DNA of 64,000 nucleotides from NCBI GenBank assembly GCA_049604295.1, contig JBMYTL010000005.1, forward strand, positions 907 through 64,906, given 5' to 3'. The position numbers were made by a program, and so were the translations under genes. Below the pieces are notes generated by a model. That model was not told the DNA's origin. It saw only the letters and a list, made by a program, of their open reading frames with translations, and made no database searches. The stretch comes from Gammaproteobacteria bacterium. GTDB lineage: Bacteria > Pseudomonadota > Gammaproteobacteria > JACKNK01. Positions 1-23,938 of the stretch are shown here, piece by piece. Every line of letters starts with the position of its first letter. Within the stretch, counting starts at the first letter, position 1.

Positions 1-1878
1 TGGGATGAAACCAAGCGATTCAGTGGAACCTACCAGGACGCTGACGTGCGTACGGTTCTGCGTAACGTGCTCGCGCAACAGGGGATCGACGTCATCTTCC
101 GCGAAGGAGTCGAGGGCACGGTCACAGCCCGTTTCGATGAATGGTTGCTTGAGGCGGCGTTCCGAAAGCTGATGGAAGAGGGGGGGCTTGCGTTCACCTA
201 CGATTCCAGCACCCGCTTGGTTACAGTCTCCGCACGCAAGGAATCGATTTCTTCCCTTGAGCTTTACTCCCCGCAGAACGTTACCTTGGCGGAGATCCGG
301 TCGGCCCTGGATGACTACCGGATCGCGGGCGCGGACATCCATTACGACTACAGCACCGGCACCATGGTGATTCGCGGCGATGCCGCCGTGACCCAGCAGG
401 TCATCAAGGTTGCCAAGCATCTTGATGACAGCGTGTCCCTCAAGCTTGAGGCCAGCCTTCGCAAGCAAGAGCTCCAGCGGAAACGGCAGCTTGAGGAATT
501 GCAGATCGCCTCCATGGCGAAAGCGTACGAGCAAACCCAGCTCGAAACCGCGGTTATCCCGCTCCGCTATGCGAACGTGGCGGAGACCAAGACGACCTTC
601 CAGGGCGAGGAGGTCACTCTTCCCGGGATCGAGCAGACACTCAAAACCCTGCTCACCATCGATGAGAGCTTTGTAGCCGGGGGCTCGGCAACCGGCTCCG
701 GCGACGATGATAAGGGCGCCACTTCCAATGGGGGCACCACTGCCATCACCATCAACGGTCAGCCGGGTCGGATTGCCGTGGACGAGCGCACCAACTCCGT
801 GATCGTTCGCGGTACGCCGCAGGTGGTCGCTGATGTGGAGGCGATCGTCAAACGCCTGGACCGGCAGGTTCCGCTGGTGGATATCGAGGTGATGATCGTG
901 CAAGCCGATGCGGGATTGTCCCGCAGCCTGGGTGTGCAGTGGGCCTACGGTCGCGGATTCAGTGCGAACGGTCGTAAGAATTTCGGGGTGAGCACCGGCC
1001 CGAATGCCGGTCAGACCGTCCTTGATCTATCCGAAGAGGCGTCCCAGACCGCGGCCAGCCGTTCCAGTACCACGGTCGGAGTGGGTGGTTCCACCACGAC
1101 CAACACCACCGCTTCCGTAGACCCGATCACGCTGCTGCCGCTGGCCACCTTCGACAGTATTGTCGGGTCGTTCATCTACAACGGCAGTCGGGCCTTCATC
1201 CAGGCGCAGATCAACGCTCTGGCCGAACAGGATAAGGCTGAGATCATAAGTTCACCGCACGTCGTGACCTTGAACAACGTGCCCGCCAAAATCACCAGCA
1301 CCGACAAGCTGCACGTTCCGCTGCAGGGCAAGGAAGGTGGTGAGGCCGAGATTGAGCAGATCGACGCGGGCCTCTCCCTCGATATCACGCCTTCGGTCTT
1401 CGAAGACGATCTGGCCGGAGCCGAGCAGTTGGTCCGCATGAACATCAACGCGCGAAATTCTTCGTTTACCAGTCAGTTCCAGACGACTGAAAAAGAGATC
1501 CAGACCCAGGTGATCCTGCGTAACGGTGGGACCTTCGTGCTTGGTGGTCTTTTCGAAACCCGTCGTGCCGAGGGTGAGGATGGTGTGCCCGGGCTCAAGG
1601 ATATCCCGCTGCTTGGGGCTCTGTTCCGGACCCGCAGTTCCGTCGATAGCCGCGCGGAATCGGTGTTCTTCATCACTCCGACAGTGGTCAACCAGGAAGA
1701 CCTGATTGCCGCGGATGTGGGTGATCGCAAGTTTTTCCGCGAGAACCGCGCCCGCCTGGGTAAGAGTGCTCAGGAATTCATGCTGCGCCAGAACAATCGG
1801 CTGGCGCGAGATACAGAAGACCTACACCGCAAGAGCTACCTGATCGACCTGACGACGGGGCTGGAGGAGGACGAGTGA
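1..1878 (+). CDS. Secretin (outer-membrane ring), 5'-truncated by the window edge; N-domains resemble T3SS SctC
   Basis: Frame is open from base 1 (WDETKRFSG...). Secretin C-domain motifs: IISSPHVVTLNNVPAKI and GGLF...GVPGLKDIPLLGALFR. N3 segment IPLRYANVAETKTTFQGEEVTLPGIEQTLKTLL and RIAVDERTNSVIVRG. Confidence 0.93.
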   Translation, partial: WDETKRFSGTYQDADVRTVLRNVLAQQGIDVIFREGVEGTVTARFDEWLLEAAFRKLMEEGGLAFTYDSSTRLVTVSARKESISSLELYSPQNVTLAEIRSALDDYRIAGADIHYDYSTGTMVIRGDAAVTQQVIKVAKHLDDSVSLKLEASLRKQELQRKRQLEELQIASMAKAYEQTQLETAVIPLRYANVAETKTTFQGEEVTLPGIEQTLKTLLTIDESFVAGGSATGSGDDDKGATSNGGTTAITINGQPGRIAVDERTNSVIVRGTPQVVADVEAIVKRLDRQVPLVDIEVMIVQADAGLSRSLGVQWAYGRGFSANGRKNFGVSTGPNAGQTVLDLSEEASQTAASRSSTTVGVGGSTTTNTTASVDPITLLPLATFDSIVGSFIYNGSRAFIQAQINALAEQDKAEIISSPHVVTLNNVPAKITSTDKLHVPLQGKEGGEAEIEQIDAGLSLDITPSVFEDDLAGAEQLVRMNINARNSSFTSQFQTTEKEIQTQVILRNGGTFVLGGLFETRRAEGEDGVPGLKDIPLLGALFRTRSSVDSRAESVFFITPTVVNQEDLIAADVGDRKFFRENRARLGKSAQEFMLRQNNRLARDTEDLHRKSYLIDLTTGLEEDE

Positions 1879-2388: not shown

Positions 2389-3122
2389 TGGCAGTTTGGT
2401 CGCGGACCGCTGGATGCCCCGGACGGAGCGGGGTATCACGTCGTTGCCACTCCCAAGGTGCCTTGCTGTTTCTCTTCGCGGCGGGTTTGCTTGGCGGGTG
2501 CCAGGAGTACAAACCCGACGAGCAGGCACCTGAGCCGGTCGAGCCGAAGGTCCAAGAGGTTGATCCAGCAACGGAAGATCTGGTCCTTGAGCCGCAATGG
2601 TTGAAAGGGGATCGTTGGGTCTGGTCCGATGGATATGGACTCAAGGTCGACAGCAGCGGTCCGGATGGAACCGTTTTCAAGCGGATCGACGACGACAAAC
2701 AATGGTTGAAGCGGCGCGGACTGACGGTGATTGAATCGCAATCCGCGCGCACTCACCGGAAGCTGCTATATAAAACAGGTGACCCAGCGGATATTTTTCC
2801 GCTTAAAATAGGCAACACAGCCGTCTACGAGCGGGAGTACTCCTCGAACGGGGTGCTCCGGGTGCATCGCACGTCGTGGGTGGTCGAGGGGCGGGAAACC
2901 ATCGAAGTGCCCGCGGGTACCTTCGATACATGGCGTCTGGTGCGGCGTTCACGCAGCACGCTCACCGGATGGACAGGTTATGAGCGGTGGTGGTACAGCC
3001 CCGACGTAAGAAACTACGTACGGATGGAGTTTCGTTACGGAGGCGCCCCGGCATCCTCTCGCGTTTTAATGGCTTACACGCTCGCTCCGCGAGTCCAATT
3101 GAATACGGAGTCCCCACGATGA
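2388..3122 (+). CDS. Lipoprotein with a VPAGTF beta-rich domain, pilotin candidate
   Basis: Lipobox LLGG|C and TIEVPAGTFDTWRL motif. Overlaps the stop of the upstream gene and the start of the downstream pilin. Start codon uncertain. Confidence 0.7.
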   Translation: MAVWSRTAGCPGRSGVSRRCHSQGALLFLFAAGLLGGCQEYKPDEQAPEPVEPKVQEVDPATEDLVLEPQWLKGDRWVWSDGYGLKVDSSGPDGTVFKRIDDDKQWLKRRGLTVIESQSARTHRKLLYKTGDPADIFPLKIGNTAVYEREYSSNGVLRVHRTSWVVEGRETIEVPAGTFDTWRLVRRSRSTLTGWTGYERWWYSPDVRNYVRMEFRYGGAPASSRVLMAYTLAPRVQLNTESPR

Positions 3123-3694
3123 ACACCTCTTCCCATATGCGCCGTGCCGCACGGGGTTTCACGCTTATCGAGATCATGGTCGTGGTGGCCGTGATCGGCA
3201 TCCTCGCCGCCATCGGCCTTCCGCAGCTCGGTGCCTACATCAAGACGGCGGAAACCGCCGAGCCTGTCGAACAGTTCGAGCGTATCGGTAAGGCGCTCAC
3301 CGGCTTCGCCAGTGCTCAGACCCAGTCTGTCCCCGACCTGGCCGCGATCATCAACGCCCAGGCCAGTATCCTGCACCCGACCCCTGCGACCGACACCATG
3401 AGCGACATCCTGCCGCACCTGAAATTGCCGGAGGACGGCGAATGGCGCTACGACATCGCAGTGGATGAAACCGCGGGTCTGACTTCGTTCCGGTACTGCA
3501 TCAGTGCTCAGCACATCACTGATGGCACCTACGTGTACTTCAGTAGCGATCGGGTCGATCTTGACGCGGGTGACGCCAATACCCTGACCTGGGAAAACAA
3601 CGTCAACCGCTCCAACCACGTGAACGAAAACACCGGTACGGTGACTGCGGGTGCGTGCTCGGGTACCGCCGGTACGGTGCTGGCCATCAACTAA
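3119..3694 (+). CDS. Type IV pilin, probable major pilin
   Basis: Class III signal RRAARG|FTLIEIMVVVAVIGILAAIGLP, two C-terminal Cys, followed by its own terminator. Confidence 0.92.
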   Translation: MNTSSHMRRAARGFTLIEIMVVVAVIGILAAIGLPQLGAYIKTAETAEPVEQFERIGKALTGFASAQTQSVPDLAAIINAQASILHPTPATDTMSDILPHLKLPEDGEWRYDIAVDETAGLTSFRYCISAQHITDGTYVYFSSDRVDLDAGDANTLTWENNVNRSNHVNENTGTVTAGACSGTAGTVLAIN

Positions 3695-4082: not shown

Positions 4083-5744
4083 ATGAACGTGGCGGGAAAT
4101 CGTTATACCGAATGGAAGTTTCTGGGCCTGGGTGGCACGGCTGCCGTTTACAGTGTCTTGGACAGTGAGCTTGATGAGCGTGTCGCTATCAAGGTGCTCG
4201 ATCCCAAACTTCTGGAAGCGAACCCGTCGCTGCGTGTCATGCTCCGGCAGGAAGTGCTTTCCTCGCGCCACCTGCGGCACACGTACATCGTCGCGGTGCA
4301 CGATTTCTACGATGGTCCAGTACCACCGTTTCCTACCGAGGCCACCAAGCCCAAGACCCTCGACGACGTTCAGGTCGATCCGAGCTCAAGGGGGTTCGGT
4401 GCGGTCATGGACATCATCCCGGGAGTGGTTGAGCTAAAGGACTGGATGGAGGACAACGCGAATGCGTTGTTCAACACATCCAAGGCGCGTTTGTCAGTAC
4501 TGATCAAGATTTTCGAGGCGTTGGAAATCGCCCATGCCCGTGTTGTCCACCGGGATCTCAAGCCGCAAAACATCATGCTGGTCAAAGGCGATATCGATCA
4601 GCCGGTAATCATGGATTTCGGTCTTGCCATGACCGGGGAAGACAACGGCCCGGCCGGACTTACCATCAAGTACGCATCTCCCGAGCAATTCCGCCACTGG
4701 GCCTCGGGTGGGGCGGCATCGGGCATCCGTATCGACAAGCGGTCGGATCTGTTCACCATGGGTGTGATCGCCTTCGAGTTGTTCACCAACCAGATTCCTC
4801 GTCAGGCCATGAAATTCCGTGCCGATCGACGAACGGGCGACATCCGTCCGGTCTTCGATGCGGTCAAGGCGAGCTCCTACAATGCGGCCGTCCCTGCATC
4901 CTTGGATGGGGTCATCGATTCCCTGTTGGCGGACGATCCGGATATGCGGCCTCAGAGCGCCAGTGAAGTCCTTGAGGTGCTCCGTGAGGTACAGCTCATT
5001 GATGAGGTGGCTACCGAAGCGGGTACGGCGGCGGCGCCCCGGGTCACCGTTCCAGGTGGGAAGTTCATTCTGGGTTCGAGTCCGTCGGAAAGCAGTAATC
5101 CCACGGAGAAACCACAGCGCCGCGTGGTCATCGAGGCTTTCGATGTGGACGTTACCCCCGTAACCAATGCGGCCTACCGGGAGTTTCTCACCAGTACCGG
5201 TTGGGAGGTTCCACCGTTCATGGATGATCCGGTCCTGGGTGCGGCGGATCATCCGGTCGTGGGGGTAACCTGGGAGGACGCCAATCGCTACGCTGAGTGG
5301 GTTGGCGGACGTCTGCCTACCGAGGCGCAGTGGGAATATGCCGCGAAGGGCGGTGAAAAACGGGCCTATCCCTGGGGCGCTGAGCCGTGGGACGCGAACC
5401 GGGCCAATATTGATCGCGCCAGTTCAGGGACCACGCCGGTCGGGCGGTTTCCGCGCGGGAACTCCCCGTTTGACCTGGCGGACATGACCGGGAACGTATG
5501 GGAGTGGTGCCAAGACGCATGGTCCGAGGGCTATTACCGTAGCCTTTCCAACGGCGTTGAAGATCCCGTATGTGAGACGGGAGACGGGCCGGATCGCTCT
5601 GTCAGAGGGGGGGCCTACAACACACCTGCTCTGATGGGCCGTTGTTCCGCGCGTTTTCATTTTGAACCTGGGGTTCGCAATCCCTCGGTGGGGTTCCGAG
5701 TGGTATACGATGCCGCCGGTGATTCCGCGGGAGGTCATGAGTAA
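4083..5744 (+). CDS. Hanks-type Ser/Thr kinase fused to a C-terminal FGE-sulfatase (SUMF1) domain
   Basis: Kinase motifs LGLGGTAAVY, VAIKVL, HRDLKPQN, DFGLA, YASPEQ, SDLF. FGE motifs RLPTEAQWEYAAKGG, DMTGNVWEWCQD, RGGAY, GFRVV. Confidence 0.93.
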   Translation: MNVAGNRYTEWKFLGLGGTAAVYSVLDSELDERVAIKVLDPKLLEANPSLRVMLRQEVLSSRHLRHTYIVAVHDFYDGPVPPFPTEATKPKTLDDVQVDPSSRGFGAVMDIIPGVVELKDWMEDNANALFNTSKARLSVLIKIFEALEIAHARVVHRDLKPQNIMLVKGDIDQPVIMDFGLAMTGEDNGPAGLTIKYASPEQFRHWASGGAASGIRIDKRSDLFTMGVIAFELFTNQIPRQAMKFRADRRTGDIRPVFDAVKASSYNAAVPASLDGVIDSLLADDPDMRPQSASEVLEVLREVQLIDEVATEAGTAAAPRVTVPGGKFILGSSPSESSNPTEKPQRRVVIEAFDVDVTPVTNAAYREFLTSTGWEVPPFMDDPVLGAADHPVVGVTWEDANRYAEWVGGRLPTEAQWEYAAKGGEKRAYPWGAEPWDANRANIDRASSGTTPVGRFPRGNSPFDLADMTGNVWEWCQDAWSEGYYRSLSNGVEDPVCETGDGPDRSVRGGAYNTPALMGRCSARFHFEPGVRNPSVGFRVVYDAAGDSAGGHE

Positions 5745-8512
5745 TGCCTGAAGCCTTTAACCGCCCGGAGCTTCGTGACAAGAGCATCGAGCTATTCATC
5801 CACTACCCAGATGGCCGGTTTGAGCGGTTCATCGCGGCAGGCGGTGGTGGGGAGTTGATGATCGGTCGTATGCATGAAACCAGCTTGACGCCGACCCGGC
5901 TGAATCTGGATGACCGCTACCTTTCGCGAAAGCACTGTCGGCTCTTCTGGGACGACGAAAAAGGCTGGATGTTGGAAGATCTCAACAGCCGCAACGGTAC
6001 ACGTTGGTCTGGTGAATCCATTGTGGAACCGGTCCCCGTTCAGGGAGGGATCTCGGTGCAGATCGGTATGACCGCATTACGCATCGTTCCGGGGTCGGAC
6101 GAAAAACCCACGTACTCGACCGCGGCGGCAAAGGGCAGCAACGAGCATGGAGATATGACGGAAATCGCGAGCGCAGATCAACTCAAGGCCAAGGCGGCCG
6201 AGGATTTTCAATCGACCCAGATGTTCAGCGCCCCGCTCGCCGCGGCGGCGTCATCGGGAGACAGTGACGAGACCGTGGTTGGGGGAGCGGCCGCGGATGA
6301 TGCCACGTTGGTCGAGGACGCGGGTATCGATGAGGACGCCACAGCCGTGCAGGCTGCACGAGCAGGGACGGGACCCGACACGGGGGTGGATCTGGATTTC
6401 GGTGAGGAGGACGCGACCGAGGTCGGTGATGGTGGGCTGCCGGAAGCGACCGCCAAGGGCGCGCCATTCGTACCCAACGACGATGTAACTGACGTTGGCG
6501 CGGCCGAGGGCGTGGCCCCTTCCGAGCCCGATGCGGATGCAACGGTTGTCAGTGAAGCGGACGATGTTGATGCGACCGCCGTCAGTGGATCTGAAGACCT
6601 CGATGCAACAACGGTCTCCGGTGGAGACGATGATGAGGCCACTGAGGTGGCTGGCGCTGACCAGGACGGGGTGACCGCTGTCGGGATTGATGTCGAGCCC
6701 GTGGCGTCCGGGAGTACCTCGGGGCGGGCCGCGCGGACAGCCAGTGCGGAACCGTCCGGTTCTACCCAGGGGCCGCCCCCCGGTATCACCGTCGATGACC
6801 TGCCGGACCTGCCGCGCGGCATGGTCAAGTTGGGACTCATGAATCTGTCCGACGCCTCGGCCATGCTGGCGGAGGCCCGCTCCACCTCGGGAACGTTCTT
6901 CCGACTCATGGCTGACAAGCGTTCGGCCCGTCACATCCACCGGATTTACGAGTGGGTCGAGGAGGAATACGGGTACAAGGTCCTGTCCGATACCGACGAG
7001 GTCTATTCGCACGTGGCGACGCTCGATTGGCTACCCGTGGAGCGCGCCCGTTCCAAGGGCTGTCTGGTTCTTGAGGGAGACGATGGGGCCCGGCCCCGGT
7101 TGGCGTGCATCGATCCCTTCGATCTGCGTCTGCTCGACTGGGTCCAACTCCAGGACGACCGTGATTTCGAGGTTTGTGTGGTCACCGCCCAGGCCTTGTA
7201 CGAGACCGTGGAGCGCATCAGCCATACCGCAATGACTGATGACGACGACGAGGTCGGTCTCGCCATCAATATCTCCAAGGAAGAGGAGGAGACGATGGCG
7301 GAGCAGATCACCGAGATCGAGGTTCCCAAGATCGTGAACTTCGTCCTGCACCGCGCATCAATCGCCGGTGCCTCGGATATCCATATCGAACCCACGGAGG
7401 AACGTCTGCTCGTACGTTTGCGCGTGAACGGCATCCTTTACGAGGAACGCTCTCTGCCCCGTGGCTACATCCCTGAAGTGACGTCACGCCTGAAGATCAT
7501 GTCCGGCATGAACGTGGCGGAAAAACGTCGTCCCCAGGATGGTCGCATAGGTGTCGCGATCCGCGGCAAGCCTATTGACGTGCGCGTCTCGACCTATCCC
7601 ACGGTGCATGGGGAGAAGGTCGTTATGCGTCTATTGGACAAGTCCGCGTTGCGGCCATCACCCGAGGCGCTCGGTCTGCTCGATCGTGATCTGAGGCTGC
7701 TCAAGGACAAACTGCACGCACCGTACGGCCTCATCATGATTTCCGGGCCGACCGGTTCGGGTAAGACAACCACGCTCTATTCCTGCCTGGGCAGTATCGA
7801 CAAGCAGTCCAAGAATGTTCTGACCGTCGAGGACCCGGTCGAATACCAGATGGGGGGCGTGCACCAGATGCAGGTCAACCAGAAAATCGGGCTCACGTTC
7901 GCAAGCGGTCTACGTACGATCCTGCGCCAGGACCCCGACGTCATCATGGTGGGTGAGTGCCGTGACTCCGAGACCGGCGGTATGGCGATTCAGGCATCCC
8001 TTACCGGTCACGTGGTGTTCTCCACGATTCATACCAACGATGCCGTGGGCGTGGTCTCACGCCTGATCGACATGGGTATCGAGCGCTTCCTTGTGGCCAG
8101 TGCCCTGACCTTGGCCATCGCGCAGCGTTTGGTGCGTGAGATATGTCCCCATTGTCGGGCGGAAGTGACCGGCCAGGAAATCATCGACAAACTGGCGAAG
8201 GATGGGATCTCACGTGAACGTCTGGATCAGCTCGGCGTGGATATCGATGACGAAATGGAGTACGCCGAGGGCAAAGGCTGCAAGCACTGTCGGCAGACCG
8301 GGTACGGCGGACGCCGCGCGGTGTTCGAGGTGTTCGAGATCGACGAGTCCGTGCGCAGCCTGATCGCTTCCGATGAGTTCACCGATGCGCGGCTGAGGGA
8401 ACTGGCTCGTAACAGCGGTATGACCACCCTGCTCAGCCATGGCTTGAAGCTGGTCGATGACGAGGTCACCACCTTCGCCGAGGTGATCCGGGTGCTCGGG
8501 GAGACCACCTGA
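5744..8512 (+). CDS. PilB/GspE-family assembly ATPase with N-terminal FHA domain and acidic Thr-repeat linker
   Basis: FHA motifs IGR, LSRKH, SRNGT. ATPase motifs ASDIHIEP, GPTGSGKT, TVEDPVE, LRQDPDVIMVGE, STIHTND and the CPHC...CKHC zinc motif. Confidence 0.95.
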   Translation: MPEAFNRPELRDKSIELFIHYPDGRFERFIAAGGGGELMIGRMHETSLTPTRLNLDDRYLSRKHCRLFWDDEKGWMLEDLNSRNGTRWSGESIVEPVPVQGGISVQIGMTALRIVPGSDEKPTYSTAAAKGSNEHGDMTEIASADQLKAKAAEDFQSTQMFSAPLAAAASSGDSDETVVGGAAADDATLVEDAGIDEDATAVQAARAGTGPDTGVDLDFGEEDATEVGDGGLPEATAKGAPFVPNDDVTDVGAAEGVAPSEPDADATVVSEADDVDATAVSGSEDLDATTVSGGDDDEATEVAGADQDGVTAVGIDVEPVASGSTSGRAARTASAEPSGSTQGPPPGITVDDLPDLPRGMVKLGLMNLSDASAMLAEARSTSGTFFRLMADKRSARHIHRIYEWVEEEYGYKVLSDTDEVYSHVATLDWLPVERARSKGCLVLEGDDGARPRLACIDPFDLRLLDWVQLQDDRDFEVCVVTAQALYETVERISHTAMTDDDDEVGLAINISKEEEETMAEQITEIEVPKIVNFVLHRASIAGASDIHIEPTEERLLVRLRVNGILYEERSLPRGYIPEVTSRLKIMSGMNVAEKRRPQDGRIGVAIRGKPIDVRVSTYPTVHGEKVVMRLLDKSALRPSPEALGLLDRDLRLLKDKLHAPYGLIMISGPTGSGKTTTLYSCLGSIDKQSKNVLTVEDPVEYQMGGVHQMQVNQKIGLTFASGLRTILRQDPDVIMVGECRDSETGGMAIQASLTGHVVFSTIHTNDAVGVVSRLIDMGIERFLVASALTLAIAQRLVREICPHCRAEVTGQEIIDKLAKDGISRERLDQLGVDIDDEMEYAEGKGCKHCRQTGYGGRRAVFEVFEIDESVRSLIASDEFTDARLRELARNSGMTTLLSHGLKLVDDEVTTFAEVIRVLGETT
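6266..6682 (+). repeat. Intragenic peptide repeat: about ten D/E-x-T-x-V units, five at an exact 11-aa period
   Basis: DETVV, DATLV, DATAV, DATEV, DVTDV, then DATVV, DATAV, DATTV, EATEV, GVTAV with the Thr residues 11 aa apart. Confidence 0.85.
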
Positions 8513-9555
8513 TGGCCGGGATCCCCCTCTCCTCTCTGCTGATCTTCACCAACCAGTTCGCGGCGATGATCTCCAGTCAGCTGCCGCTGGTGGATGTGCT
8601 CAAGAATCTCGCTCGCGAGACTCCGCAGCGTAAGTTCCGCGATGTGCTCGACGACGTCGTCGACGATGTGGAGCACGGAGCTGATCTGGGGGATGCGCTC
8701 GCCCAGCACCGCCATGTATTCGACGATATCTATATCAACGTGGTGCGGGCTGGAATGGGGTCTGGGCGCCTTGAGGATGCCTTGGTCCATCTTGCCAACT
8801 ACCTCGGCAATGCCGATGTGGTCAGCAAGAAGGTGCGCTCGGCCATGACCTATCCGGTAATGGTGATCGGCGCCTTCTTCGTGGCGTTCAATGCCATGAC
8901 CTTTTTTATCCTGCCGCGCTTCGCGAAGGTGTTTCAATCCTTCGGTTCCGAGCTACCGGTGCCTACCCAGATAATGATGGACCTGGGCGATATCTGGCAG
9001 CAGTGGTGGTACATCTTCGGCCTGGTTCTGGTCATGGGAATCGGTGCCTTCGTACTCTGGATCGCCACGCCCCAAGGTCGCTTGGTCTGGGATGAGGTCA
9101 AGCTCGATATTCCCATCGTGGGGCGTATCTGGCGCCTTGGCGCCTTGGCGCGCTTTCTGCGCACATTTGCTGTGCAGGTGCGCAATGAGGTCGAGATTCT
9201 CAAGGCTTTGGAATTGGCCGCACCGTCCAGCGGCAACCGCTACATTGAAAACGTACTCATGGACATTGCCGATGACATTGAGTCCGGCATGGGGATCGCG
9301 CAATCGTTTCGCGAACACGACGTGTTCTCGGGGATCGTTCTGCAGATGATTTCTGCCGGTGAGGAAAGCAGTAGCCTGGACGAGTTGCTGCTGTCCGCGG
9401 CTGATTATTTCGACCGGATTCTCGATGAGCAGGTCCAGCAGTGGACATCAATGATCAATCCCATCCTCACGGTCGTCATCGGATTGTTGATCGGCGGGAT
9501 GATGGTCGCGGTGTTCATGCCGGTGTTCGAAATGGGTAAATCGGTGGGGCATTGA
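8512..9555 (+). CDS. PilC/GspF inner-membrane platform protein
   Basis: FTNQFAAMISSQLPL, YINVVRAGMGSGRL, SAMTYP, MISAGEESSSLDELL, INPIL...AVFMPVF. Shorter N-terminus than typical PilC. Confidence 0.93.
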   Translation: MAGIPLSSLLIFTNQFAAMISSQLPLVDVLKNLARETPQRKFRDVLDDVVDDVEHGADLGDALAQHRHVFDDIYINVVRAGMGSGRLEDALVHLANYLGNADVVSKKVRSAMTYPVMVIGAFFVAFNAMTFFILPRFAKVFQSFGSELPVPTQIMMDLGDIWQQWWYIFGLVLVMGIGAFVLWIATPQGRLVWDEVKLDIPIVGRIWRLGALARFLRTFAVQVRNEVEILKALELAAPSSGNRYIENVLMDIADDIESGMGIAQSFREHDVFSGIVLQMISAGEESSSLDELLLSAADYFDRILDEQVQQWTSMINPILTVVIGLLIGGMMVAVFMPVFEMGKSVGH

Positions 9556-9681: not shown

Positions 9682-11646
9682 ATGATCTTCAGTAAGAAAA
9701 AATCCCGTAACGGTGAGGCGAGCGCTGTTGATGAGCTCATCAACAATGTGTTGATCGTCCGTGCGGGTGCAGGTGAGTACGACGTCCGTTTCAAAGGAAC
9801 CGGCGAGGAACAGGAATATTCCGGGGAACTGGTGGAACGGCCCGACGACGTCGTGGAGCTCTTCGAGAAAACCCTGCACGAGGCCATGGAGGCGGTGCCC
9901 AAGCGGGTGATGCGTTCGGTATCCCGCATTCAGGTGTTTCTCGAGGAACAGCCGTTCGCCTATCTCGATAACCGTGATCCCAGTGTGGCGAGTTCAACCC
10001 AGGCCGCACGCGAGAAGGGCGCGGAGATCCTTGGCGGAACACCTGTCACATTTGGCCGTCAGGATTTCGGAACCGGCGATCGTGATCGCAAACAGCCGAG
10101 CGCGGTATACGGTTTCGCACCCACGGAAATCATGCAGCGTTATCTCGCGGCGACGGGAGAGAAATGCGTCAAGATCGGGGCCGTTGTTCCCAGTGTCTCG
10201 GTCGCCATCGGACAGATCGCCAAGGCAGACCCCGGCAAGACATACGGCATCATCGAGCTGGGTTGGCGTTACAGCACGATCACTCTGGCGAACTGGGCAT
10301 TCAATGCCGTCTACGTACGCCGCGTCCCTGTGGGTCTGGAGGCCATGGTCAAGGCAGTTTCCGACGGCTCGGGCATGCCCGCCAAGGAAGTGATGTCGAA
10401 TCTACAGGTGCGTGATTACCTCTCTGAGTTGCCGGTTGATGGCAGTGCATCCGCTCAGCTGGGTCCGGTTGAGTCGGCGCTCCAGCCCATGGCCGCCGAT
10501 CTCATGCGCAATCTCAATCAGACTTTGCGCTTTTTCGACAGTGACCAGGGATGCGGACGCCCTGAGGTTCTGCGCGTCACAGGCGCCCATACGAAGATAC
10601 GAGGTCTGGAACGCTGGCTGTCCAAGGGCACGGGGCTGTCCATCGAAATCGTTGAGGAAACCCTGTTCGAACAGTTCGTCCAAGAGGGCGATACGGGCCT
10701 GATGAACCTGTTGAGTGGACTTGAGCGTGTCCCGATCTCCGTGGGTAAAACCCAATACGTCTATGCCAATGACCGGTTCGTGAAAAGCACCGAGGCGCCG
10801 CGCGAGCCCCAGAAGATCACGGGCTCTTCACAGAAACGCCGAAGCGGTGACAAGCCCAGTCGTACCACGGGGCGCAGGGCGCGTCGCAGGGCTGAATCGA
10901 AGTCCGGTGAAAGCCCTTTTGCCAAGATGTTCAAGCGATCATCGACGCCCAAGGCCGCCGCCACACCGGAGGGCCCCGCGGCCAATGAAAAGGTCTGGTT
11001 CATTGCGTTCTACGGTTTGGTCGCCCTCGTGTTGTGGTGGGGGTGGAACCAGTACGCGGCTGTCGACAAAAAGTACCGCCTCGCGGCGGGCGGATATCAA
11101 AGCAAGGTAAGCGAGTTGCAGAAACACCGGCGTCAGTTGACCGCTGAGGGTGGTCAGCCCCAGGTGACCAATGTGGATGTCGACAAGGTCCTGTGGACGG
11201 AGAAGTTTCTCTCCATCGGCCAGAATATGAATAACCACCTCTGGTTGACCGATGTGTACCTCTCTGAAGTTCAGGGGCAGATCGGTGATGGTCAGGTCGT
11301 ACGTCAGAAACTGATCATCGAGGGGGCTGCCCTGCCCAGTACCGATGGCCATGTATTCGAACTGGCGAATTTCATCCAGCGGTTGGAGGCCGACGAGGAT
11401 CGTTTCATGAGCGATTTCCGTGAGGTGTCTTTTGAAGGCGCTGAGATCGGCGAGGACAACGGGGATGAAATCATCCGCTTTACGCTGGCGGCGTGGTACG
11501 ACGATGAGAAACGTCTCAAGAGTTCCGATTCCGGGGGCGACGGCGAAGGGTCCGGTGGCGTGTTGAAAGACACGCAGGCGAAGGTCAAGGCGCGCAATGA
11601 AGCGACGCAGAAGGCGGCCCTGGGGCCCAATGCGGGAGGACGCTGA
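9682..11646 (+). CDS. PilM-PilN-like fusion (actin-like domain, TM helix, periplasmic PilN domain)
   Basis: PilM-like GIIELGWRYSTITL, TLRFF and LRVTGAHTKIRGL. MNLL motif, single TM, then PilN-like LWLTDV...LIIEG...ANFIQRLE. Confidence 0.75.
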   Translation: MIFSKKKSRNGEASAVDELINNVLIVRAGAGEYDVRFKGTGEEQEYSGELVERPDDVVELFEKTLHEAMEAVPKRVMRSVSRIQVFLEEQPFAYLDNRDPSVASSTQAAREKGAEILGGTPVTFGRQDFGTGDRDRKQPSAVYGFAPTEIMQRYLAATGEKCVKIGAVVPSVSVAIGQIAKADPGKTYGIIELGWRYSTITLANWAFNAVYVRRVPVGLEAMVKAVSDGSGMPAKEVMSNLQVRDYLSELPVDGSASAQLGPVESALQPMAADLMRNLNQTLRFFDSDQGCGRPEVLRVTGAHTKIRGLERWLSKGTGLSIEIVEETLFEQFVQEGDTGLMNLLSGLERVPISVGKTQYVYANDRFVKSTEAPREPQKITGSSQKRRSGDKPSRTTGRRARRRAESKSGESPFAKMFKRSSTPKAAATPEGPAANEKVWFIAFYGLVALVLWWGWNQYAAVDKKYRLAAGGYQSKVSELQKHRRQLTAEGGQPQVTNVDVDKVLWTEKFLSIGQNMNNHLWLTDVYLSEVQGQIGDGQVVRQKLIIEGAALPSTDGHVFELANFIQRLEADEDRFMSDFREVSFEGAEIGEDNGDEIIRFTLAAWYDDEKRLKSSDSGGDGEGSGGVLKDTQAKVKARNEATQKAALGPNAGGR

Positions 11647-13081: not shown

Positions 13082-13833
13082 CACGTGGTTTGTACCTGTT
13101 CCTGGCCGTATTCATGGGGGTCAGCCCGGGGGTATTTGCCGCCGATCTGGATTCCGCCATGTCGGCTTATCGCGGCGGCCGTTTCTCGGATGCCTATGGC
13201 GCGTTCCGGGAATTGGCCGCGGCGGGTAATGCGGAGGCCCAGTTCCGCTTGGGTTTGATGTATCACCAGGGTCGTGGCGCGCCGCGAAACTACGCGGAGG
13301 CGCTGGCTTGGTATCGCCAGTCGGCGGCGCAGGGTAATGCCATGGCGCAGAACAACCTGGGCGTGATGTACCGGGACGGGCAGGGAATCCGCTCCAACAG
13401 GGTGCTTGCCTACATGTGGTTCAGCCTGGCCGCGGCCCAGTTCGAGGACCGGGCCCAGCGGGCGGTGCGTAGTTTGCAGGAGGAGATGTCGCGGGAGGAG
13501 GAATTGCAGGCCCAGCAGTTGACCACCGAGTACATGGAGAAACTCTGGGCCGACAAGCGCACCGTGGCGGCTGAGTCACCTGCGCCGGTCGCCGTTCCGC
13601 GTTTCATGGTTCAGTTGGGGCTGTTCGGTAAGGCCTCGAATGTAGAGCGAATCCGATTGCGCCTGAAAGAGGCCGACCTCCCCGTGGTCACGGAACCCGT
13701 GGAAGTGCGGGGGAAACGTTATCAACGGGTTCGTGTGGGGCCTTTTTCCCAAGAAGACGACGCCGAAGCTGTCGCTCGGCGCATGGATGCATTGTTCCGT
13801 CTGAAAAGCCTGGTCGTTCCAGTGTCGTCATGA
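13078..13833 (+). CDS. Sel1-repeat protein with C-terminal SPOR domain
   Basis: Signal peptide, Sel1 repeats (AQFRLGLMY, AQNNLGVMY) and SPOR motifs VQLGLF...YQRVRVGPF. Confidence 0.9.
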   Translation: MTRGLYLFLAVFMGVSPGVFAADLDSAMSAYRGGRFSDAYGAFRELAAAGNAEAQFRLGLMYHQGRGAPRNYAEALAWYRQSAAQGNAMAQNNLGVMYRDGQGIRSNRVLAYMWFSLAAAQFEDRAQRAVRSLQEEMSREEELQAQQLTTEYMEKLWADKRTVAAESPAPVAVPRFMVQLGLFGKASNVERIRLRLKEADLPVVTEPVEVRGKRYQRVRVGPFSQEDDAEAVARRMDALFRLKSLVVPVSS

Positions 13834-13852
13834 GCGGCAGGAGGACTTTGTA

Positions 13853-14470
13853 ATGCATTCATTGCGTGGAAATGCGCGGCGCGCCCGCGGCTTCACCCTC
13901 ATCGAACTGATGGTCGTCATGGCCATCATCGGGATCCTCGCCGGAATCAGTTTCGGTGGCATCCGGAACATGATGATCGACTCAAGGGTCACCCAGGCCA
14001 AGCCCTACCTGGAACGCATAGCGACGGCGTTGCGTACACGCTTCAACCGCAGCGGGACGTATACCGATGCTGCGGGAAACGATTATGTGGATGAGGACGA
14101 TATCCAGAGCGACCTGGGGGTCGATCTCGCGGACGCGGTGGATTTCTGTTTCGTCGTCGAGACTGACTCAGGCAATTTCGTGCTCGCCAATGGCAATGTG
14201 GCCAGTTATCCCGATGCGGATTTCGAGGTTTGGGCCATTCTTCGCCACAGTGGGCACAACGCCAACGCCACGCATGGAACCACGGGATTCGGTTGTGTGC
14301 TGGATGACGACAAGGGTGAGTCCTCCGGTTGGGTGGATGACGGTGGCGCCGCGGAATTCGCCGGTGCTGGCAACCGGGTCGTCCTACGCTATCCCGCGCC
14401 CGCCGATTCGCTTTTCAATGGTTATCTGTGGACCGCCGGTATCAGCACCACGGAGGCACTCACGGATTGA
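13853..14470 (+). CDS. Type IV pilin-like protein (minor pilin)
   Basis: RRARG|FTLIELMVVMAIIGILAGI. Confidence 0.9.
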   Translation: MHSLRGNARRARGFTLIELMVVMAIIGILAGISFGGIRNMMIDSRVTQAKPYLERIATALRTRFNRSGTYTDAAGNDYVDEDDIQSDLGVDLADAVDFCFVVETDSGNFVLANGNVASYPDADFEVWAILRHSGHNANATHGTTGFGCVLDDDKGESSGWVDDGGAAEFAGAGNRVVLRYPAPADSLFNGYLWTAGISTTEALTD

Positions 14471-14496
14471 TTCCGTGAGTCAAATGGATCTGAACC

Positions 14497-15162
14497 GTGC
14501 GAAATGACCGTGGATTCAGCCTCATCGAGGTGGTCGTCGCCATGGCGCTCATCTCCATGCTGGTGCTTGGGCTCAGTGCGACCTGGGTAACGGTAGATGA
14601 TCATTTCTACCGCCTTGATCTGAGGCAGCGCGCCATCTTCCTTGCCAACAATGAGATGGAACGCCTCTCCACACTGGGGCGTTACACGGATTTCTTCACC
14701 GCATCGGAGGCCAGTTATCAGGACGACGCGGGCGCGCGGTGGATCTACCGCGGTACACCACAGGTGACGACGGGAATGGTGTCACCATCGCCTCCCAACC
14801 TCGTCGTGACGGTTAATGCCCTGGGTGCTGCGACCAAGACACCGGTCGATACCTTTACCGAACGCCAGATTCTCTTTCTCGATACCGATGCACTGAACAA
14901 TGCGAACACCGAACTGAACGTTCTGTGGCTGGACTACGACAACAATGTCACCGCCCGCCTGGAGTGGGAAATCATGGTCGACAGCGCAACCGCCGATGGA
15001 CGCAGCCATGACATGGGCGGGTGCCTGGGTGACAGTTGTCATGTCATCGAGGTGCGGGTGAGCTATCCCTACCGGTTCGTGGACGGTGTTGATCCCGCGG
15101 AAGACTCCATGGGTGGCGTCGAGACCATTGCCCTGCGCACGATCGTGGGGCGTCAGCAATGA
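14497..15162 (+). CDS. Minor pilin, PilV/GspI-like position
   Basis: DRG|FSLIEVVVAMALISML; AIFLANNEMERL; IEVRVSY near the C-terminus. Confidence 0.88.
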   Translation: MRNDRGFSLIEVVVAMALISMLVLGLSATWVTVDDHFYRLDLRQRAIFLANNEMERLSTLGRYTDFFTASEASYQDDAGARWIYRGTPQVTTGMVSPSPPNLVVTVNALGAATKTPVDTFTERQILFLDTDALNNANTELNVLWLDYDNNVTARLEWEIMVDSATADGRSHDMGGCLGDSCHVIEVRVSYPYRFVDGVDPAEDSMGGVETIALRTIVGRQQ

Positions 15163-15851
15163 ACCGCGCGCAGGCACAGAGGGGATTCACCCTCATCGAA
15201 TTGTTGGTCGCGATGACCCTGAGCGCGTTCCTTTTCGGTGTGCTCTACCAGTTCCTGGCCCAGACGGCGATTTACTCAGAGATCATGATTCAGCGTGTGC
15301 GGGCCAACCAGGAGGCGCGGGAAGCCTTCGACCTGGTTGCCAACGGGGGCGTCTTCGACAACGACGGCAATGGGCTGATCAATACGACGGACCCGTACAC
15401 CGTAGCGACGGACGAGGCGGTCATCTCCCTGCGGGGTAACGCCACCATCGAGGCGGCTGTCCTGCAGCCCAATGGTGGAACGATCGCCCGTGTCAATCAG
15501 CGACTGGAACTGACCCATAACGGAATGATCCTGCGGACCAAGCAGCTGAACCAGACAGTTGAATGTACCGCCGCGGGAGCACCTCATGACGACTGCGTGG
15601 CCGCCGGGGAATTGATTATTGAGGGGTACCACTCGCAGGACCCGGCGTTTTCTGATCAGGTCAATTCCCGGTCGTACAACGTTTCGCGTCATTGTGGCAA
15701 TGCCATTCCCGAGCGTGGCGTGACCCAGGAGGTCGATGTCACATTCATCGATCCGCGCATGGTTGCCCGGGCCGATTTCGATTACACCGCCGAGCAGACG
15801 ACGGCAACCTACCAATTCCTTGTCGCCCACCGTGTGGATTGTTTGCCATGA
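15159..15851 (+). CDS. Minor pilin, PilW/GspJ-like position
   Basis: QRG|FTLIELLVAMTLSAFL; ATGA overlap with the upstream gene. Confidence 0.88.
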   Translation: MNRAQAQRGFTLIELLVAMTLSAFLFGVLYQFLAQTAIYSEIMIQRVRANQEAREAFDLVANGGVFDNDGNGLINTTDPYTVATDEAVISLRGNATIEAAVLQPNGGTIARVNQRLELTHNGMILRTKQLNQTVECTAAGAPHDDCVAAGELIIEGYHSQDPAFSDQVNSRSYNVSRHCGNAIPERGVTQEVDVTFIDPRMVARADFDYTAEQTTATYQFLVAHRVDCLP

Positions 15852-16480
15852 GTCGTTCCGGCCTGATTCCGAAAGGGCGCAATGGGCAGAGAGGGTCGAT
15901 CCTCATCGCCGTGATGGCGGTCCTCATGGTGATCATGTTCATCGTGTCCGTACTCGTGAGTGATTTCGCCGAGGGCGAAACCCGCGCGGTCGATGAGTTT
16001 CTGGTTGATGTCCAGGGGTATTGGGCCATGTCCGGCGCCATGGACTATGCAGTCAGCCAGATGCGTAACAACACGGGTAATACCGATACCACCGCCAACA
16101 AGCTCGCCAACCTGCAGCAGGCCTTCACGGACCTGAGCAACAACGAAGATGATTTTCTGCGTTACGACGTGATCGCCGGAACCTCGGACTACCGCTTCAA
16201 CCCTGTTGCGAATGTGACCACGCTGGCCGCCGTACCCATCGTCGGGGCGGATGACGGCGAGTTCCGGGTCACGCTGAGTCATAACGCGCCAACCTTCCCA
16301 CAGGGCGTGACCATTCCCATGGTGCAGGGCTACGAAGGACGAGCCCGCCAACTCCAGGTTGATCTCTGTATCGGAGACATTCCGGTTGCCAACCGCAACC
16401 CGGGCAACTGCGATACCGATGACGCCGATAACGGTGAGAACGGCATTGCGACGGTGTACCACTACCGTCTGATTCCCTGA
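15848..16480 (+). CDS. Minor pilin, PilX/GspK-like
   Basis: QRG|SILIAVMAVLMVI lacks Glu5, as in PilX/GspK; ATGA overlap at 15848. Confidence 0.82.
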   Translation: MSRSGLIPKGRNGQRGSILIAVMAVLMVIMFIVSVLVSDFAEGETRAVDEFLVDVQGYWAMSGAMDYAVSQMRNNTGNTDTTANKLANLQQAFTDLSNNEDDFLRYDVIAGTSDYRFNPVANVTTLAAVPIVGADDGEFRVTLSHNAPTFPQGVTIPMVQGYEGRARQLQVDLCIGDIPVANRNPGNCDTDDADNGENGIATVYHYRLIP

Positions 16481-16676
16481 CCTCCGCCCGGAATTGCTAT
16501 CAGCCGAAAGAATGTATTCACAATGACTTCCGGCTTGGGCTAACGTATCGGGATGGGCGGTGTTAGCCCGGGGATCATCAGAAGCCCGACTAACCGCCAT
16601 CTCAGAATTCAAAAAAATACTGCCCGGCGTTCTCCACGACCGGCGCACGATCACAATCGAGACACGAGGAATTCCC

Positions 16677-17612
16677 ATGAAAACGGCATCCATGATGCGC
16701 GTGTTGGCGCCCTTTGCCTTGTTGCTGGGCTGGTCTGGCGTGCAGGCCGAACCGTATTACATCGGCGCCAAGGCCTGTGAAAAGTGCCACGAGGCGGAGG
16801 TGAAGGTCTGGGAAGGCACGGCGCACTTCAAGTCCTACAAGGAAGTGCACAAGAAGCCTGAGGCGAAGAAGATCCTCAAAGCGGCCGGGTCTGAACGCAG
16901 CATGAAGAAGGATCCGGTGTGCGCGAGCTGTCACTACACGCAGATTTCCAAGGGGCCCGGCAAGAAAGCCAAGGCCAAGTCAGGTCCGTCGTGCGAGAGC
17001 TGTCATGGTCCGGCGTCCGGGTGGAAGGAGGCGCATAACGATTTCGGCGGAGTCGAGAAGGCCAAGGACGAGGATCCGGCTCATCGCGAACAACGCATTG
17101 CCAAGACCACCGAGATGGGAATGATCTGGCCCTCCCAGCTCTTCGACGTCGCATCGAACTGCATGAGCTGCCATGGTCTGACCAAGCCCGGTGTGGAGGA
17201 CGCCCTGGGCAAGATGCTTGATGCGGGTCACCCGATCGAGCCCGACTTCGAGCTGGTCGCTTATTCCCAGGGCAGCGTGCGCCATCGTTTCTACCCGCCC
17301 GATGTGACGGTCAACAAGGAGATGAGCAAGGCGGAACTGAGCCGCATGTTCGCGGTGGGCCAGATCGCCAAGCTTCTCTCTGCATCCCAGGCGGCCGATA
17401 ACAGCAGTCATCCCAAGTACAAAGCGGCACAGGCCGAACGTGCGGAATCAGCCCGGGCCGCGCTGAAGCCTGTCGCGGGCATTGGTGCCGTCGGGGCATT
17501 CCTCAAGGCGCCCAGTGAGAAAACCGCGCGTGCAGCCGTAGCGGCTATCGAAGGCGAAGATCTGAGTGCGAAACTGGGTGGCAGCCTGCCGGCGCCCTCC
17601 AGCTACAAGTAA
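16677..17612 (+). CDS. Periplasmic tetraheme c-type cytochrome (c554-like N-terminus)
   Basis: RBS GAGG, signal peptide ending VQA|E, YIGAKACEKCH; four CxxCH (CEKCH, CASCH, CESCH, CMSCH). Confidence 0.9.
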   Translation: MKTASMMRVLAPFALLLGWSGVQAEPYYIGAKACEKCHEAEVKVWEGTAHFKSYKEVHKKPEAKKILKAAGSERSMKKDPVCASCHYTQISKGPGKKAKAKSGPSCESCHGPASGWKEAHNDFGGVEKAKDEDPAHREQRIAKTTEMGMIWPSQLFDVASNCMSCHGLTKPGVEDALGKMLDAGHPIEPDFELVAYSQGSVRHRFYPPDVTVNKEMSKAELSRMFAVGQIAKLLSASQAADNSSHPKYKAAQAERAESARAALKPVAGIGAVGAFLKAPSEKTARAAVAAIEGEDLSAKLGGSLPAPSSYK

Positions 17613-17633
17613 GCGACAGGAACACACATCGAC

Positions 17634-20233: not shown

Positions 20234-20311
20234 AATGCTTCCCGACCTGCATGCCCGACGCTCTGACGTCGTTGGCTCTGCCCGCGGACCGCGGCCTATG
20301 GAGGCGTTTTG

Positions 20312-23927: not shown

Positions 23928-23938
23928 GGGGCAGAACC

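Follow-up and report, generated by a model that had tools for sequence, protein, structure and literature searches.

How a type IV filament motor might be controlled when its ATPase carries a candidate reader of phosphothreonine (pThr) and a row of threonine motifs is the question raised by a gene at 5744..8512 of the window (the whole stretch of 64,000 nucleotides from Gammaproteobacteria contig JBMYTL010000005.1 that was analysed; all features given here lie on its forward strand). The gene encodes a 922-aa assembly ATPase of the PilB/GspE type, in the order FHA domain, disordered linker, degenerate MshEN-like N-domain and ATPase. The regulatory inputs described so far for PilB/GspE-type motors are chiefly c-di-GMP (MshEN, FimX/PilZ) and response-regulator partners. 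A preliminary description of the sequence had proposed that multisite phosphorylation of the linker, read by the FHA domains of the hexamer, acts as a graded switch on the motor in place of c-di-GMP.

The T2SSE ATPase core (7322..8491) was matched by Pfam at residues 527-916 (PF00437; E 2e-121), and its Walker A motif GPTGSGKT (668-675) and tetracysteine (C801, C804, C846, and C849) were invariant columns. The best solved relatives were Geobacter PilB (562 bits) and GspE (519 bits), and the protein scored below the NCBIfam equivalog cut-offs for both GspE (TIGR02533; 509.9 versus 630.25) and PilB (TIGR02538; 478 versus 675.65). In a representative search, the clade stood apart with more than 480 bits, compared to at most 425 for ordinary PilB. 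By these scores, the ATPase represents a clade separate from the GspE and PilB equivalogs. Two of its relatives carry the source name "TadA".

The ATPase gene lies in one co-directional cluster together with a secretin gene (46..1878; Pfam Secretin and Secretin_N), a prepilin-type gene encoding a major pilin or pseudopilin-like protein (2987..3694; N_methyl at 52-77, GspG/PilA-like N-terminus, true start probably near residue 45 of the frame), located directly before the kinase gene discussed below, and a PilC/GspF-type platform protein (8512..9555; T2SSF, E 2.4e-49, below the NCBIfam PilC/GspF cut-offs), the start of which overlaps the ATPase stop. Further along are a 654-aa protein with no Pfam family and only a weak PilM-like match (9682..11646; TIGR01175 pilM, E 2.6e-4), three prepilin-type genes with N_methyl and weak GspH and GspI matches (13853..14470, 14497..15162, and 15159..15851), and a weak GspK-like frame (15692..16480). 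The best explanation is that the ATPase serves a type IV filament system that resembles a T2SS but has diverged from it, made up of the secretin, pilins, PilC, the PilM-like protein and minor pseudopilins. The neighbouring multihaem cytochrome genes were also considered as part of this system and were rejected, the association not being conserved; no CxxCH genes were found beside the cluster in G002, G003, G326, and G161.

The FHA domain (5861..6067) gave a Pfam match at residues 40-108 (PF00498; E 1.8e-11), its 44.7 bits being well above the cut-off of 20.7, and in the AF2 model (pLDDT 77-88 for the domain) the beta-sandwich spans approximately residues 14-118. All of the pThr-binding residues that had been described as retained were indeed present (G41-R42, S61-R62-K63-H64, and N84-G85-T86), with SRKH and NGT lining up with the SRxH and NGT of the solved FHA domains 1mzk and 3po8. 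These residues were unchanged across four orthologues and the canonical set was kept in 22 to 26 of the 31 rows of the clade alignment; the domain was missing from five rows. Judged by its sequence, this FHA domain is a candidate pThr reader.

The acidic linker that follows (6116..6781; residues 125-346, 222 residues) had an AF2 pLDDT below 50 throughout and, since it is predicted to be disordered, would be accessible. Aspartate and glutamate make up 22% of its composition, and lysine and arginine 3%. Read from the translation, 12 Thr-centred motifs form a ladder from T139 to T311 (6152..6682): DMTEI (T139), QSTQMF (T158), DETVV (177), DATLV (188), DATAV (200), DATEV (225), DVTDV (249), DATVV (267), DATAV (278), DATTV (289), EATEV (300), and GVTAV (311). 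The five Thr from T267 to T311 are each exactly 11 residues apart, as had been noted, and so are T177 and T188. Over residues 117-352, [DE]xTx[VILM] occurred 10 times, whereas 20,000 shuffles averaged 0.68 occurrences, peaked at 5 and never reached 10. In the whole genome, only three frames reached at least five motifs per 150 aa, and the second-best of them, the C34 protein, is another FHA protein, composed of a TM segment, an FHA domain and EGTIVDPVxPS repeats. Because TRF detected no tandem array in the DNA under the ladder (the sole array was an unrelated 9-bp, 2-copy repeat at 6797-6814), recent slippage in the source genome does not account for the ladder.

Comparison with the congeneric sister species bore out the idea that the Thr residues are conserved. 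Eleven of the 12 motif Thr were kept, the remaining one being changed from T to S, versus only 1 of the 10 other linker Thr. Identity within the linker was 31/36 at motif positions and 82/200 for the rest, and the linker as a whole was 48% identical, with 92-95% in the flanking domains. These figures show purifying selection on the Thr motifs inside a fast-evolving, predicted-disordered linker.

Repeat number, which had been suggested as a point of comparison, also differed among homologues, with the near-identical proteins P0007 and P0154 differing solely by one 11-aa unit. The strict motif was enriched in 18 of the 31 clade rows (shuffle P ≤0.02) and not in the other 13, several of which bear variant T-hydrophobic-hydrophobic repeats (NAPTMMASDVH six times in P0007, ATVAI/ATLAV in P0013). 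Some FHA-bearing relatives have few motifs (none in P0010 and P0016, one each in L156 and L158), and linker length ranged from 71 to 274 residues across the rows. Unit lengths of 8, 10, 11, and 18-20 aa were found in relatives (L149, 10 aa with DATVV; L150, 18-20 aa; G326, 19 aa; the window protein, 11 aa), and Thr, not Ser or Val, was central in every independent repeat type. The different units indicate that ladders arose independently in separate lineages. An 11-residue spacing acting as a structural ruler was rejected, given the 8-, 10-, 18-20-, and 19-residue units of relatives; since the exact spacing is not conserved, it reflects local duplication history. Five relatives (G326, G161, P0006, P0008, and P0011) have two FHA domains, compared to one in the window protein, and in G326 and G161 the order is FHA-ladder-FHA-ladder, with motifs flanking both FHA domains. 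Two other searches yielded no relatives: one with residues 1-420 returned the window protein alone, low-complexity words swamping the candidates, and all 80 loci from a contig search with generic Walker-type patterns were of the ordinary PilB/GspE kind, outside the clade.

The N-terminal PilB-type domain (6791..7234; four helices and an alpha/beta part, AF2 pLDDT approximately 88-93) is a homologue of MshEN/GSPII without c-di-GMP motifs. Its Pfam MshEN match (residues 409-497) lay just above the cut-off (27.9 versus 23.1 bits). In this region, the clade profile could be aligned with the N-terminal part of PilB from Geobacter and Myxococcus, and it weakly matched the MshE structure 5htl (E 8e-4); a single-sequence search with residues 346-520 gave chance matches only among solved structures. 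Using the 24-residue MshEN motif as defined in PMC5013675, we found neither a strict nor a relaxed copy in the ATPase. Both motifs have been lost, with the RLG positions reading DLP... and ...TFFRLMA..., and RLG is absent from the whole protein, in line with the degenerate segment first described. The relaxed motif was present in 0 of the 31 clade members. Among 104 ordinary PilB/GspE-like hits, however, just 26 had it, and a missing motif is thus nothing peculiar to the clade. The suggestion that phosphorylation works in place of c-di-GMP was therefore not supported, although the motif is indeed absent.

Directly upstream, at 4083..5744, lies a gene for a soluble Hanks-type Ser/Thr kinase (residues 8-297; Pkinase, E 9.4e-25) with an FGE-sulfatase-like domain (residues 321-541; FGE-sulfatase, E 8.9e-54), which the preliminary description did not cite. 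The kinase stop codon and the ATPase start codon share the overlap TAATG. The Gly loop, K37, E57, HRDxKxxN (156-163), D178-G180, T194, and P200-E201 were invariant in all 10 kinase orthologues; judged by these residues and the overlap, the kinase is catalytically intact and translationally coupled to the ATPase. Across the phylum, the kinase-FGE gene was directly upstream of the ATPase in 14 of 17 related loci (5 of 6 at class level, and 9 of 11 at phylum level, a set restricted to loci with upstream DNA), and in the sixth class-level genome a kinase orthologue was present on another contig. Three of the 11 phylum-level ATPases (L153, L155, and L157) had no FHA detected by Pfam and kept the kinase neighbour, and the kinase link therefore does not require the FHA domain. 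In two related ATPases (P0014 and P0135), a kinase domain is fused in place of the FHA. No phosphatase was found in the cluster, and the only PP2C match of the genome was on contig C4. The intact and conserved kinase upstream is the strongest argument for phosphorylation.

From these results, we consider it somewhat better than an even bet (a probability of about 0.55) that the filament motor is regulated by phosphorylation through a module of the FHA domain and the disordered Thr ladder, written by the co-transcribed kinase-FGE. Most likely, as far as sequence comparison can tell, the kinase next door writes multisite pThr marks and the FHA domain reads them. The cytoplasmic kinase would phosphorylate several of the acidic-x-T-x-hydrophobic sites, which would then be bound by an FHA domain, either that of the phosphorylated protomer or that of a neighbour, and this binding may shift the state of the motor by releasing an autoinhibited N-terminus, stabilising the hexamer or making motors cluster where the platform lies. 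Resetting would fall to the genome's only PP2C, the gene for which is outside the cluster. In this reading, phosphorylation, binding of the ladder by the FHA domain and the way in which the motor responds are inferred. The graded nature of the proposed switch did not carry over into this reading, as multisite phosphorylation systems can give thresholds or clustering as well as gradation. Several observations speak against the module. The hydrophobic residue of the ladder is at +2 (and +1) and small residues occupy +3, the position selected by many FHA domains; the 13 rows without strict-motif enrichment, the FHA-bearing relatives with 0 or 1 motif, the ATPases without a detected FHA that keep the kinase neighbour and the lack of a phosphatase gene in the cluster fit it poorly; and the sister species has Ser in place of one motif Thr, although FHA domains are not known to read pSer. 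Precedents in its favour are Rv1747 with its kinase PknF, described below, and the sites of the kinase PknA, which are acidic at -3 to -6 and hydrophobic at +3 (PMC7164672).

Other readers and ligands may be involved: the FHA domain may bind the kinase's own pThr, and one of the eight other FHA matches in the genome may read the ladder. Binding of FHA domains to phosphorylated kinases is established in mycobacterial systems. It is possible, though unlikely, that the FHA is a docking domain for pThr (T194) on the autophosphorylated kinase and holds it on the motor, and that the ladder is a substrate only, acting when phosphorylated by its negative charge or by recruiting other FHA proteins. The invariant activation-loop T194 in the 10 kinases, the nine FHA matches of the genome (three within the window), the kinase neighbour kept by FHA-less clade members, and the kinase-fused ATPases are all consistent with docking, as is the finding that cPknF binds the FHA module of Rv1747 more or less tightly according to phosphorylation state (PMC8339232). 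However, FHA and ladder share one chain across many lineages, the two-FHA relatives have motifs flanking both domains, as in self-ligand modules, and the C34 protein likewise pairs an FHA domain with its own ladder.

Alternatively, the output could be clustering and not a graded activity switch, with a multivalent network of six FHA domains and up to approximately 70 pThr sites per hexamer condensing motors at the assembly platform. We regard this as quite unlikely, since the present data fit intra-hexamer binding equally and some relatives hold only 0 to 3 motifs, although multivalency on both sides, ladders amplified repeatedly in separate lineages and the existence of two-FHA relatives would suit it. 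Rv1747 oligomerises and phase-separates upon linker phosphorylation, as cited in PMC8339232, and Fha condensates have been proposed for the T6SS (preprint 10.1101/2023.12.21.572528). Finally, the ladder may have nothing to do with phosphorylation and be an acidic entropic spacer derived from repeat expansion, or a set of short beta-strand motifs binding another partner, such as PilC, the PilM-like protein, or the FGE-like domain, with the FHA serving an unrelated interaction. The wide variation in linker length and composition, the unconserved unit length and the 13 unenriched rows could be accommodated in this way, but conservation specific to the motif Thr, Thr at the centre of each independent repeat type and an intact kinase linked to the module in 14 of 17 loci could hardly be, making it very unlikely.

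Beyond the kinase-written module favoured above lies a broader reading that we offer tentatively and think rather doubtful, namely, that the motor of a T2SS-like type IV filament is controlled directly by a Ser/Thr kinase through a dedicated module of three parts, the soluble kinase-FGE, the FHA reader, and an evolvable multivalent pThr ladder. The module would be widespread in Pseudomonadota and probably beyond, the FGE-like domain would be a sensor, copy number would change by slippage, and the valency of the ladder would determine at what threshold, or how far, the kinase drives hexamers to assemble or cluster. If true, the PilB/GspE-type motor would have a post-translational input different in kind from nucleotide second-messenger inputs. 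Kinase, reader, and substrate would be held compactly in two adjacent genes conserved across distant lineages, and the natural variation in site number makes this a good system for what multisite phosphorylation of disordered regions computes (threshold, gradation, or clustering). Approximately 40 metagenomic cluster representatives, currently annotated as generic or, wrongly, "TadA" ATPases, are flagged. In the literature searched, most subscription journals lying outside its coverage, we found neither an FHA domain fused to a PilB/GspE-type ATPase nor direct Hanks-kinase control of this family via a motor-fused FHA.

Among known systems, GarA and OdhI have an FHA domain and an N-terminal ETTS-type Thr motif in one chain, the pThr binding their own FHA; both are small proteins that regulate metabolic enzymes through a single site. 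QSTQMF (T158) of the window protein resembles the ETTS-type motif, and the clade profile also picks up the FHA domains of GarA and OdhI, but these regulators are without a repeat ladder and do not sit on a motor. The c-di-GMP-gated ATPases MshE, PilB, and PilF have a homologous N-domain, in which the window protein has lost both 24-residue motifs. In the T6SS, the FHA protein is a separate scaffold, and phosphorylation falls on single Thr residues of Fha or TssL, whereas the window motor ATPase itself carries both the candidate reader and the candidate multisite substrate. The T6SS threonine phosphorylation pathway (PpkA, PppA, and Fha), a post-translational control of a secretion machine, has a Hanks kinase and an FHA reader governing assembly (PMC5995506 and PMC12607579). 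Class III CpaF of Tad pili, mostly from betaproteobacteria, has an FHA-IDR-CpaF architecture (PMC12019362) and resembles the window protein in its N-terminal FHA and disordered region on a type IV filament ATPase. In contrast, the window ATPase scored 55 bits against the TadA-family model TIGR03819 (cut-off 373) and approximately 500 bits against GspE/PilB, CpaF structures matched it only at E ~1e-8 over the P-loop region, and a Thr ladder, a kinase partner, and an FHA function are not described in the passages of PMC12019362 consulted.

In Rv1747, an ABC transporter of M. tuberculosis, PknF phosphorylates Thr residues of a disordered linker beside FHA domains (T152, T210, and others), leading to compaction and oligomerisation (PMC8339232). 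The window protein differs in having one FHA domain and not two, approximately 12 motifs versus two main sites, and a hexameric PilB/GspE-type ATPase in place of an ABC transporter; its neighbouring kinase is soluble with an FGE-sulfatase-like domain, and the FHA sequences resemble each other only as a generic family match. The likeness lies in an FHA domain beside a disordered linker with conserved candidate Thr acceptors, fused to an NTP-driven, membrane-associated machine. For the window protein, the candidate writer of the linker is the intact Hanks kinase encoded next door, a neighbour in 14 of 17 loci. In the relatives G326 and G161, the likeness extends to the two-FHA arrangement.

The 922-aa ATPase (ORF 5744..8512, + strand) combines an FHA domain (residues 40-108, Pfam E 1.8e-11), a weak MshEN match (residues 409-497; 27.9 bits, cut-off 23.1) and a T2SSE ATPase core (residues 527-916, E 2e-121). 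An AlphaFold2 model computed from the 31-row clade alignment (A2) gave a confident FHA sandwich (approximately residues 11-120, pLDDT 77-88), a single long stretch with pLDDT <50 (residues 125-346), a confident N-domain (residues 350-496) with four helices followed by an alpha/beta part, and a confidently modelled ATPase part. As the preliminary description had claimed, the FHA domain keeps the GR, SxxH and NGT residues for phosphothreonine binding: G41-R42, S61-R62-K63-H64 and N84-G85-T86 line up with SRxH and NGT in FHA domains of solved structure (KAPP, 1mzk; Rv0020c, 3po8). These residues are invariant in all four family orthologues and kept in 22 to 26 of the 31 clade rows, with five rows lacking the whole domain.

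The linker between the FHA domain and the N-domain (residues 117-352) carries 12 threonine motifs (DMTEI, QSTQMF, DETVV, DATLV, DATAV, DATEV, DVTDV, DATVV, DATAV, DATTV, EATEV, and GVTAV), with threonines at positions 139, 158, 177, 188, 200, 225, 249, 267, 278, 289, 300, and 311. The acidic-x-T-x-hydrophobic ladder noticed beforehand was recovered, with an exact 11-residue spacing of the five threonines from T267 to T311. Ten [DE]xTx[VILM] matches were found in the linker versus 0.68 expected, and none of 20000 composition-preserving shuffles of this segment reached 10 (maximum 5). The ladder is genuine and beyond chance. TRF found no DNA tandem repeat beneath it, and the copies have diverged in nucleotides while retaining the motif.

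We compared the protein with its congeneric orthologue in the sister species (G001; 934 aa, 83% overall identity). Identical residues made up 107/116 of the FHA domain, 544/570 of residues 353-922 and 113/236 of the linker. Conservation of the threonines, on which the initial proposal had been made to depend, was evident here: 11 of the 12 motif threonines were identical, the remaining one being Ser, versus 1 of the 10 other linker threonines, and motif positions -2, 0, and +2 agreed in 31/36 cases. Judged by this comparison, the ladder threonines are under selection.

Of 1.84 billion cluster representatives searched, about 45 proteins scored >480 bits, forming a set distinct from ordinary PilB/GspE proteins at ≤425 bits. 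Among 58 relatives scanned with Pfam, FHA plus T2SSE was found in most of the top-scoring clade set, two FHA domains in the metagenomic representatives P0006, P0008, and P0011, and a protein kinase domain replacing FHA in P0014 and P0135. In the ESM Atlas, two T2SSE plus FHA clusters had 64 and 63 members, with Pseudomonadota and Planctomycetota as the commonest phyla for those few members that have a record. The strict threonine motif was enriched in the linkers of 18/31 alignment rows (shuffle P at most 0.02), and several of the 13 non-enriched rows bear variant Thr-hydrophobic-hydrophobic repeats (NAPTMMASDVH six times in P0007, alternating ATVAI/ATLAV in P0013, and ATVR four times in P0006); in P0010, P0011, P0016, and P0026, motifs are few or absent. 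Around 476 linker threonines, the residues enriched on average were D/E at -2 to -4, A at -1, I/V/M at +1, and M/V/L/I at +2. The units themselves differ between lineages, with eight DAT[VI][VM] sites plus DATML at 224 spaced by 10 residues (locus L149), four EAT[IV]V sites spaced by 18-20 (locus L150), and, in genome G326, three [ED]ATLV plus DTTLV spaced by 19 behind the second FHA domain as well as DATQL, DATQV, and DATLI at variable spacing between the two FHA domains. Two proteins labelled Magnetococcales MAG by their source differ solely by one 11-residue unit (6 versus 7 copies), so the variation in repeat number that the preliminary description had proposed to look for does occur. By the differing units and the one-unit copy change, threonine-site multiplicity has therefore been amplified repeatedly and is still variable; the 11-residue spacing is local history and no conserved ruler.

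The clade profile aligned the N-domain with the extreme N-terminus of Geobacter and Myxococcus PilB (RLGELLV..., RLGSIL...), and at the RLG positions the window protein has DLPRGMVKLGLMNLSDASAMLAEA and GTFFRLMADKRSA... Using the strict and relaxed MshEN motifs as given in the available text of PMC5013675, neither was matched by any of the 31 clade rows; among the other PilB/GspE-like hits, 26/104 matched the relaxed and 5/104 the strict motif. The lack of RLG had thus been recognized correctly, but three quarters of the ordinary relatives likewise lack the motif, so it does not establish that phosphorylation replaces c-di-GMP control.

Directly upstream of the ATPase gene, with a TAATG stop/start overlap, lies kinase-FGE (4083..5744, + strand, 553 aa), in which Pfam places a Pkinase domain at residues 8-297 and an FGE-sulfatase-like domain at residues 321-541. 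The Gly-rich loop, K37, E57, H156-R157-D158-x-K160-x-x-N163, D178-x-G180, T194, and P200-E201 are invariant in 10 orthologues, and kinase-FGE is therefore, by its catalytic residues, an active-type Hanks kinase. Read by eye, without a prediction tool, the stretch joining the two domains in the printed sequence showed no hydrophobic segment, and the protein is therefore probably cytoplasmic. The FGE-sulfatase-like domain, kept in 14/14 ATPase-adjacent kinases, may act on this cytoplasmic-looking kinase as a sensor, metal site, or docking domain. In P0014 (943 aa) and P0135 (886 aa), the kinase domain is joined to the N-terminus of an MshEN-T2SSE ATPase without FHA or ladder; by domain content, these chains unite the functions of the two neighbouring genes.

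Clade members were present in 4/400 scored genomes at class level (a tally including G310, G298, G043, and G144, flagged unpublished and without a clade member; G251 was unscored) and in 12/401 genomes at phylum level. At class level, kinase-FGE lies immediately 5' of the ATPase in the window genome, G001, G002, G003, and G326; in G001 it sits at a contig end with the same 1-base overlap. G161 has an unrelated gene upstream of the ATPase, and a full-length orthologue of kinase-FGE (46% identical) is on a different contig. At phylum level, Pkinase plus FGE-sulfatase was directly upstream in 9 of 11 loci with upstream DNA (L140, on a contig of only 2.1 kb, was excluded), with a prepilin gene there instead in L151 and L154. 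Both levels together, kinase-FGE adjoins the ATPase in 14/17 loci, a descriptive count and not a statistic because the genomes are related and partly overlap the representative set. L151 (relative G585), without kinase-FGE upstream, also has a kinase with a cyclic-nucleotide-binding domain (13659-15098, +) about 5 kb from the ATPase on the opposite strand.

The genes between 46 and ~16480 all lie on the + strand: a secretin (46..1878), two genes without assignment, a prepilin-type gene (2987..3694), kinase-FGE and the ATPase, PilC/GspF (8512..9555), a weakly PilM-like 654-aa protein without a Pfam family (9682-11646), a 273-aa protein without assignment, an SLT transglycosylase, a Sel1/SPOR protein, and finally three prepilin-type genes with a weak GspK-like frame. 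Relatives show identical gene order. The ATPase scores under both equivalog cut-offs (GspE, 509.9 versus 630; PilB, 478 versus 676), and we therefore name the cluster a divergent T2SS-like type IV filament system, which may make a pilus or a pseudopilus. The 654-aa protein, whose long basic middle looks disordered and whose position is conserved in relatives (~650-740 aa), is a candidate for a fused PilM/N/O-like component of the platform. Immediately downstream of the cluster (16560-27920) are multihaem cytochromes (16560..17612, 20309..22177, and 22071..23927, with 4, 10, and 5 CxxCH), together with a cNMP-binding/4Fe-4S protein (17634..19388) and an FAD/NAD/2Fe-2S reductase (25565..26833), and further on a 349-aa protein bearing FHA at its C-terminus (26871..27920); the cytochrome genes are not conserved beside the cluster in G002, G003, G326, and G161.

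The window genome (76% complete) has 4 Pkinase, 1 PP2C, and 9 FHA matches, the PP2C match lying on contig C4 beside a kinase gene and an FHA gene. Its best FHA match is a third FHA protein of the window (32145-32819, 224 aa, FHA near the N-terminus). When all frames of ≥150 aa were scanned, only three reached at least 5 motifs per 150 aa: the ATPase (9), a 2898-aa frame (5), and, as the only other frame with a density equal to that of the ATPase, an FHA protein outside the window (9; C34:2686-4077, - strand). The latter (464 aa) has an N-terminal membrane segment, FHA, and about ten 11-residue EGTIVDPVxPS units; a further FHA gene (C34:4897-5100) adjoins it in divergent orientation. An FHA domain with its own threonine ladder thus appears twice in this genome, and the C34 protein is an independent hint of multisite switching.

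We propose that kinase-FGE would write phosphothreonine at several ladder sites of the ATPase linker and that the FHA domain of the ATPase would read them, creating a multisite switch. For the whole chain this is the best reading, at a probability of roughly 0.55, and phosphorylation of the ladder by the neighbouring kinase is, taken singly, somewhat more likely than that. Sites of PknA show a similar acidic-upstream, hydrophobic-downstream preference in the text available for PMC7164672. Three points speak against a multisite switch. The ladder hydrophobics are at +1/+2 and not +3, the position read selectively by many FHA domains; in some FHA-bearing relatives the linker is nearly motif-free; and three FHA-less relatives retain the kinase neighbour. 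That the FHA domain instead docks the kinase seems unlikely, clustering as the output slightly more so, and a ladder motif working independently of phosphorylation is improbable.

The closest studied analogue of this FHA, ladder, and kinase arrangement is Rv1747, with FHA domains and a disordered linker bearing T152/T210 and further threonines, whose phosphorylation by PknF leads to compaction, oligomerisation, and phase separation, according to the portion of PMC8339232 available. The order FHA-IDR-ATPase is shared with 'class III' CpaF of Tad pili, for which the accessible part of PMC12019362 gives no function. A literature search, which left most subscription journals uncovered, returned nothing on an FHA-PilB/GspE-type ATPase fusion, its threonine ladder, or a kinase-FGE partner. 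Control of an envelope machine through phosphothreonine and FHA is a known principle, and the window module would be a variant of it, well supported by sequence and with predicted biochemistry.
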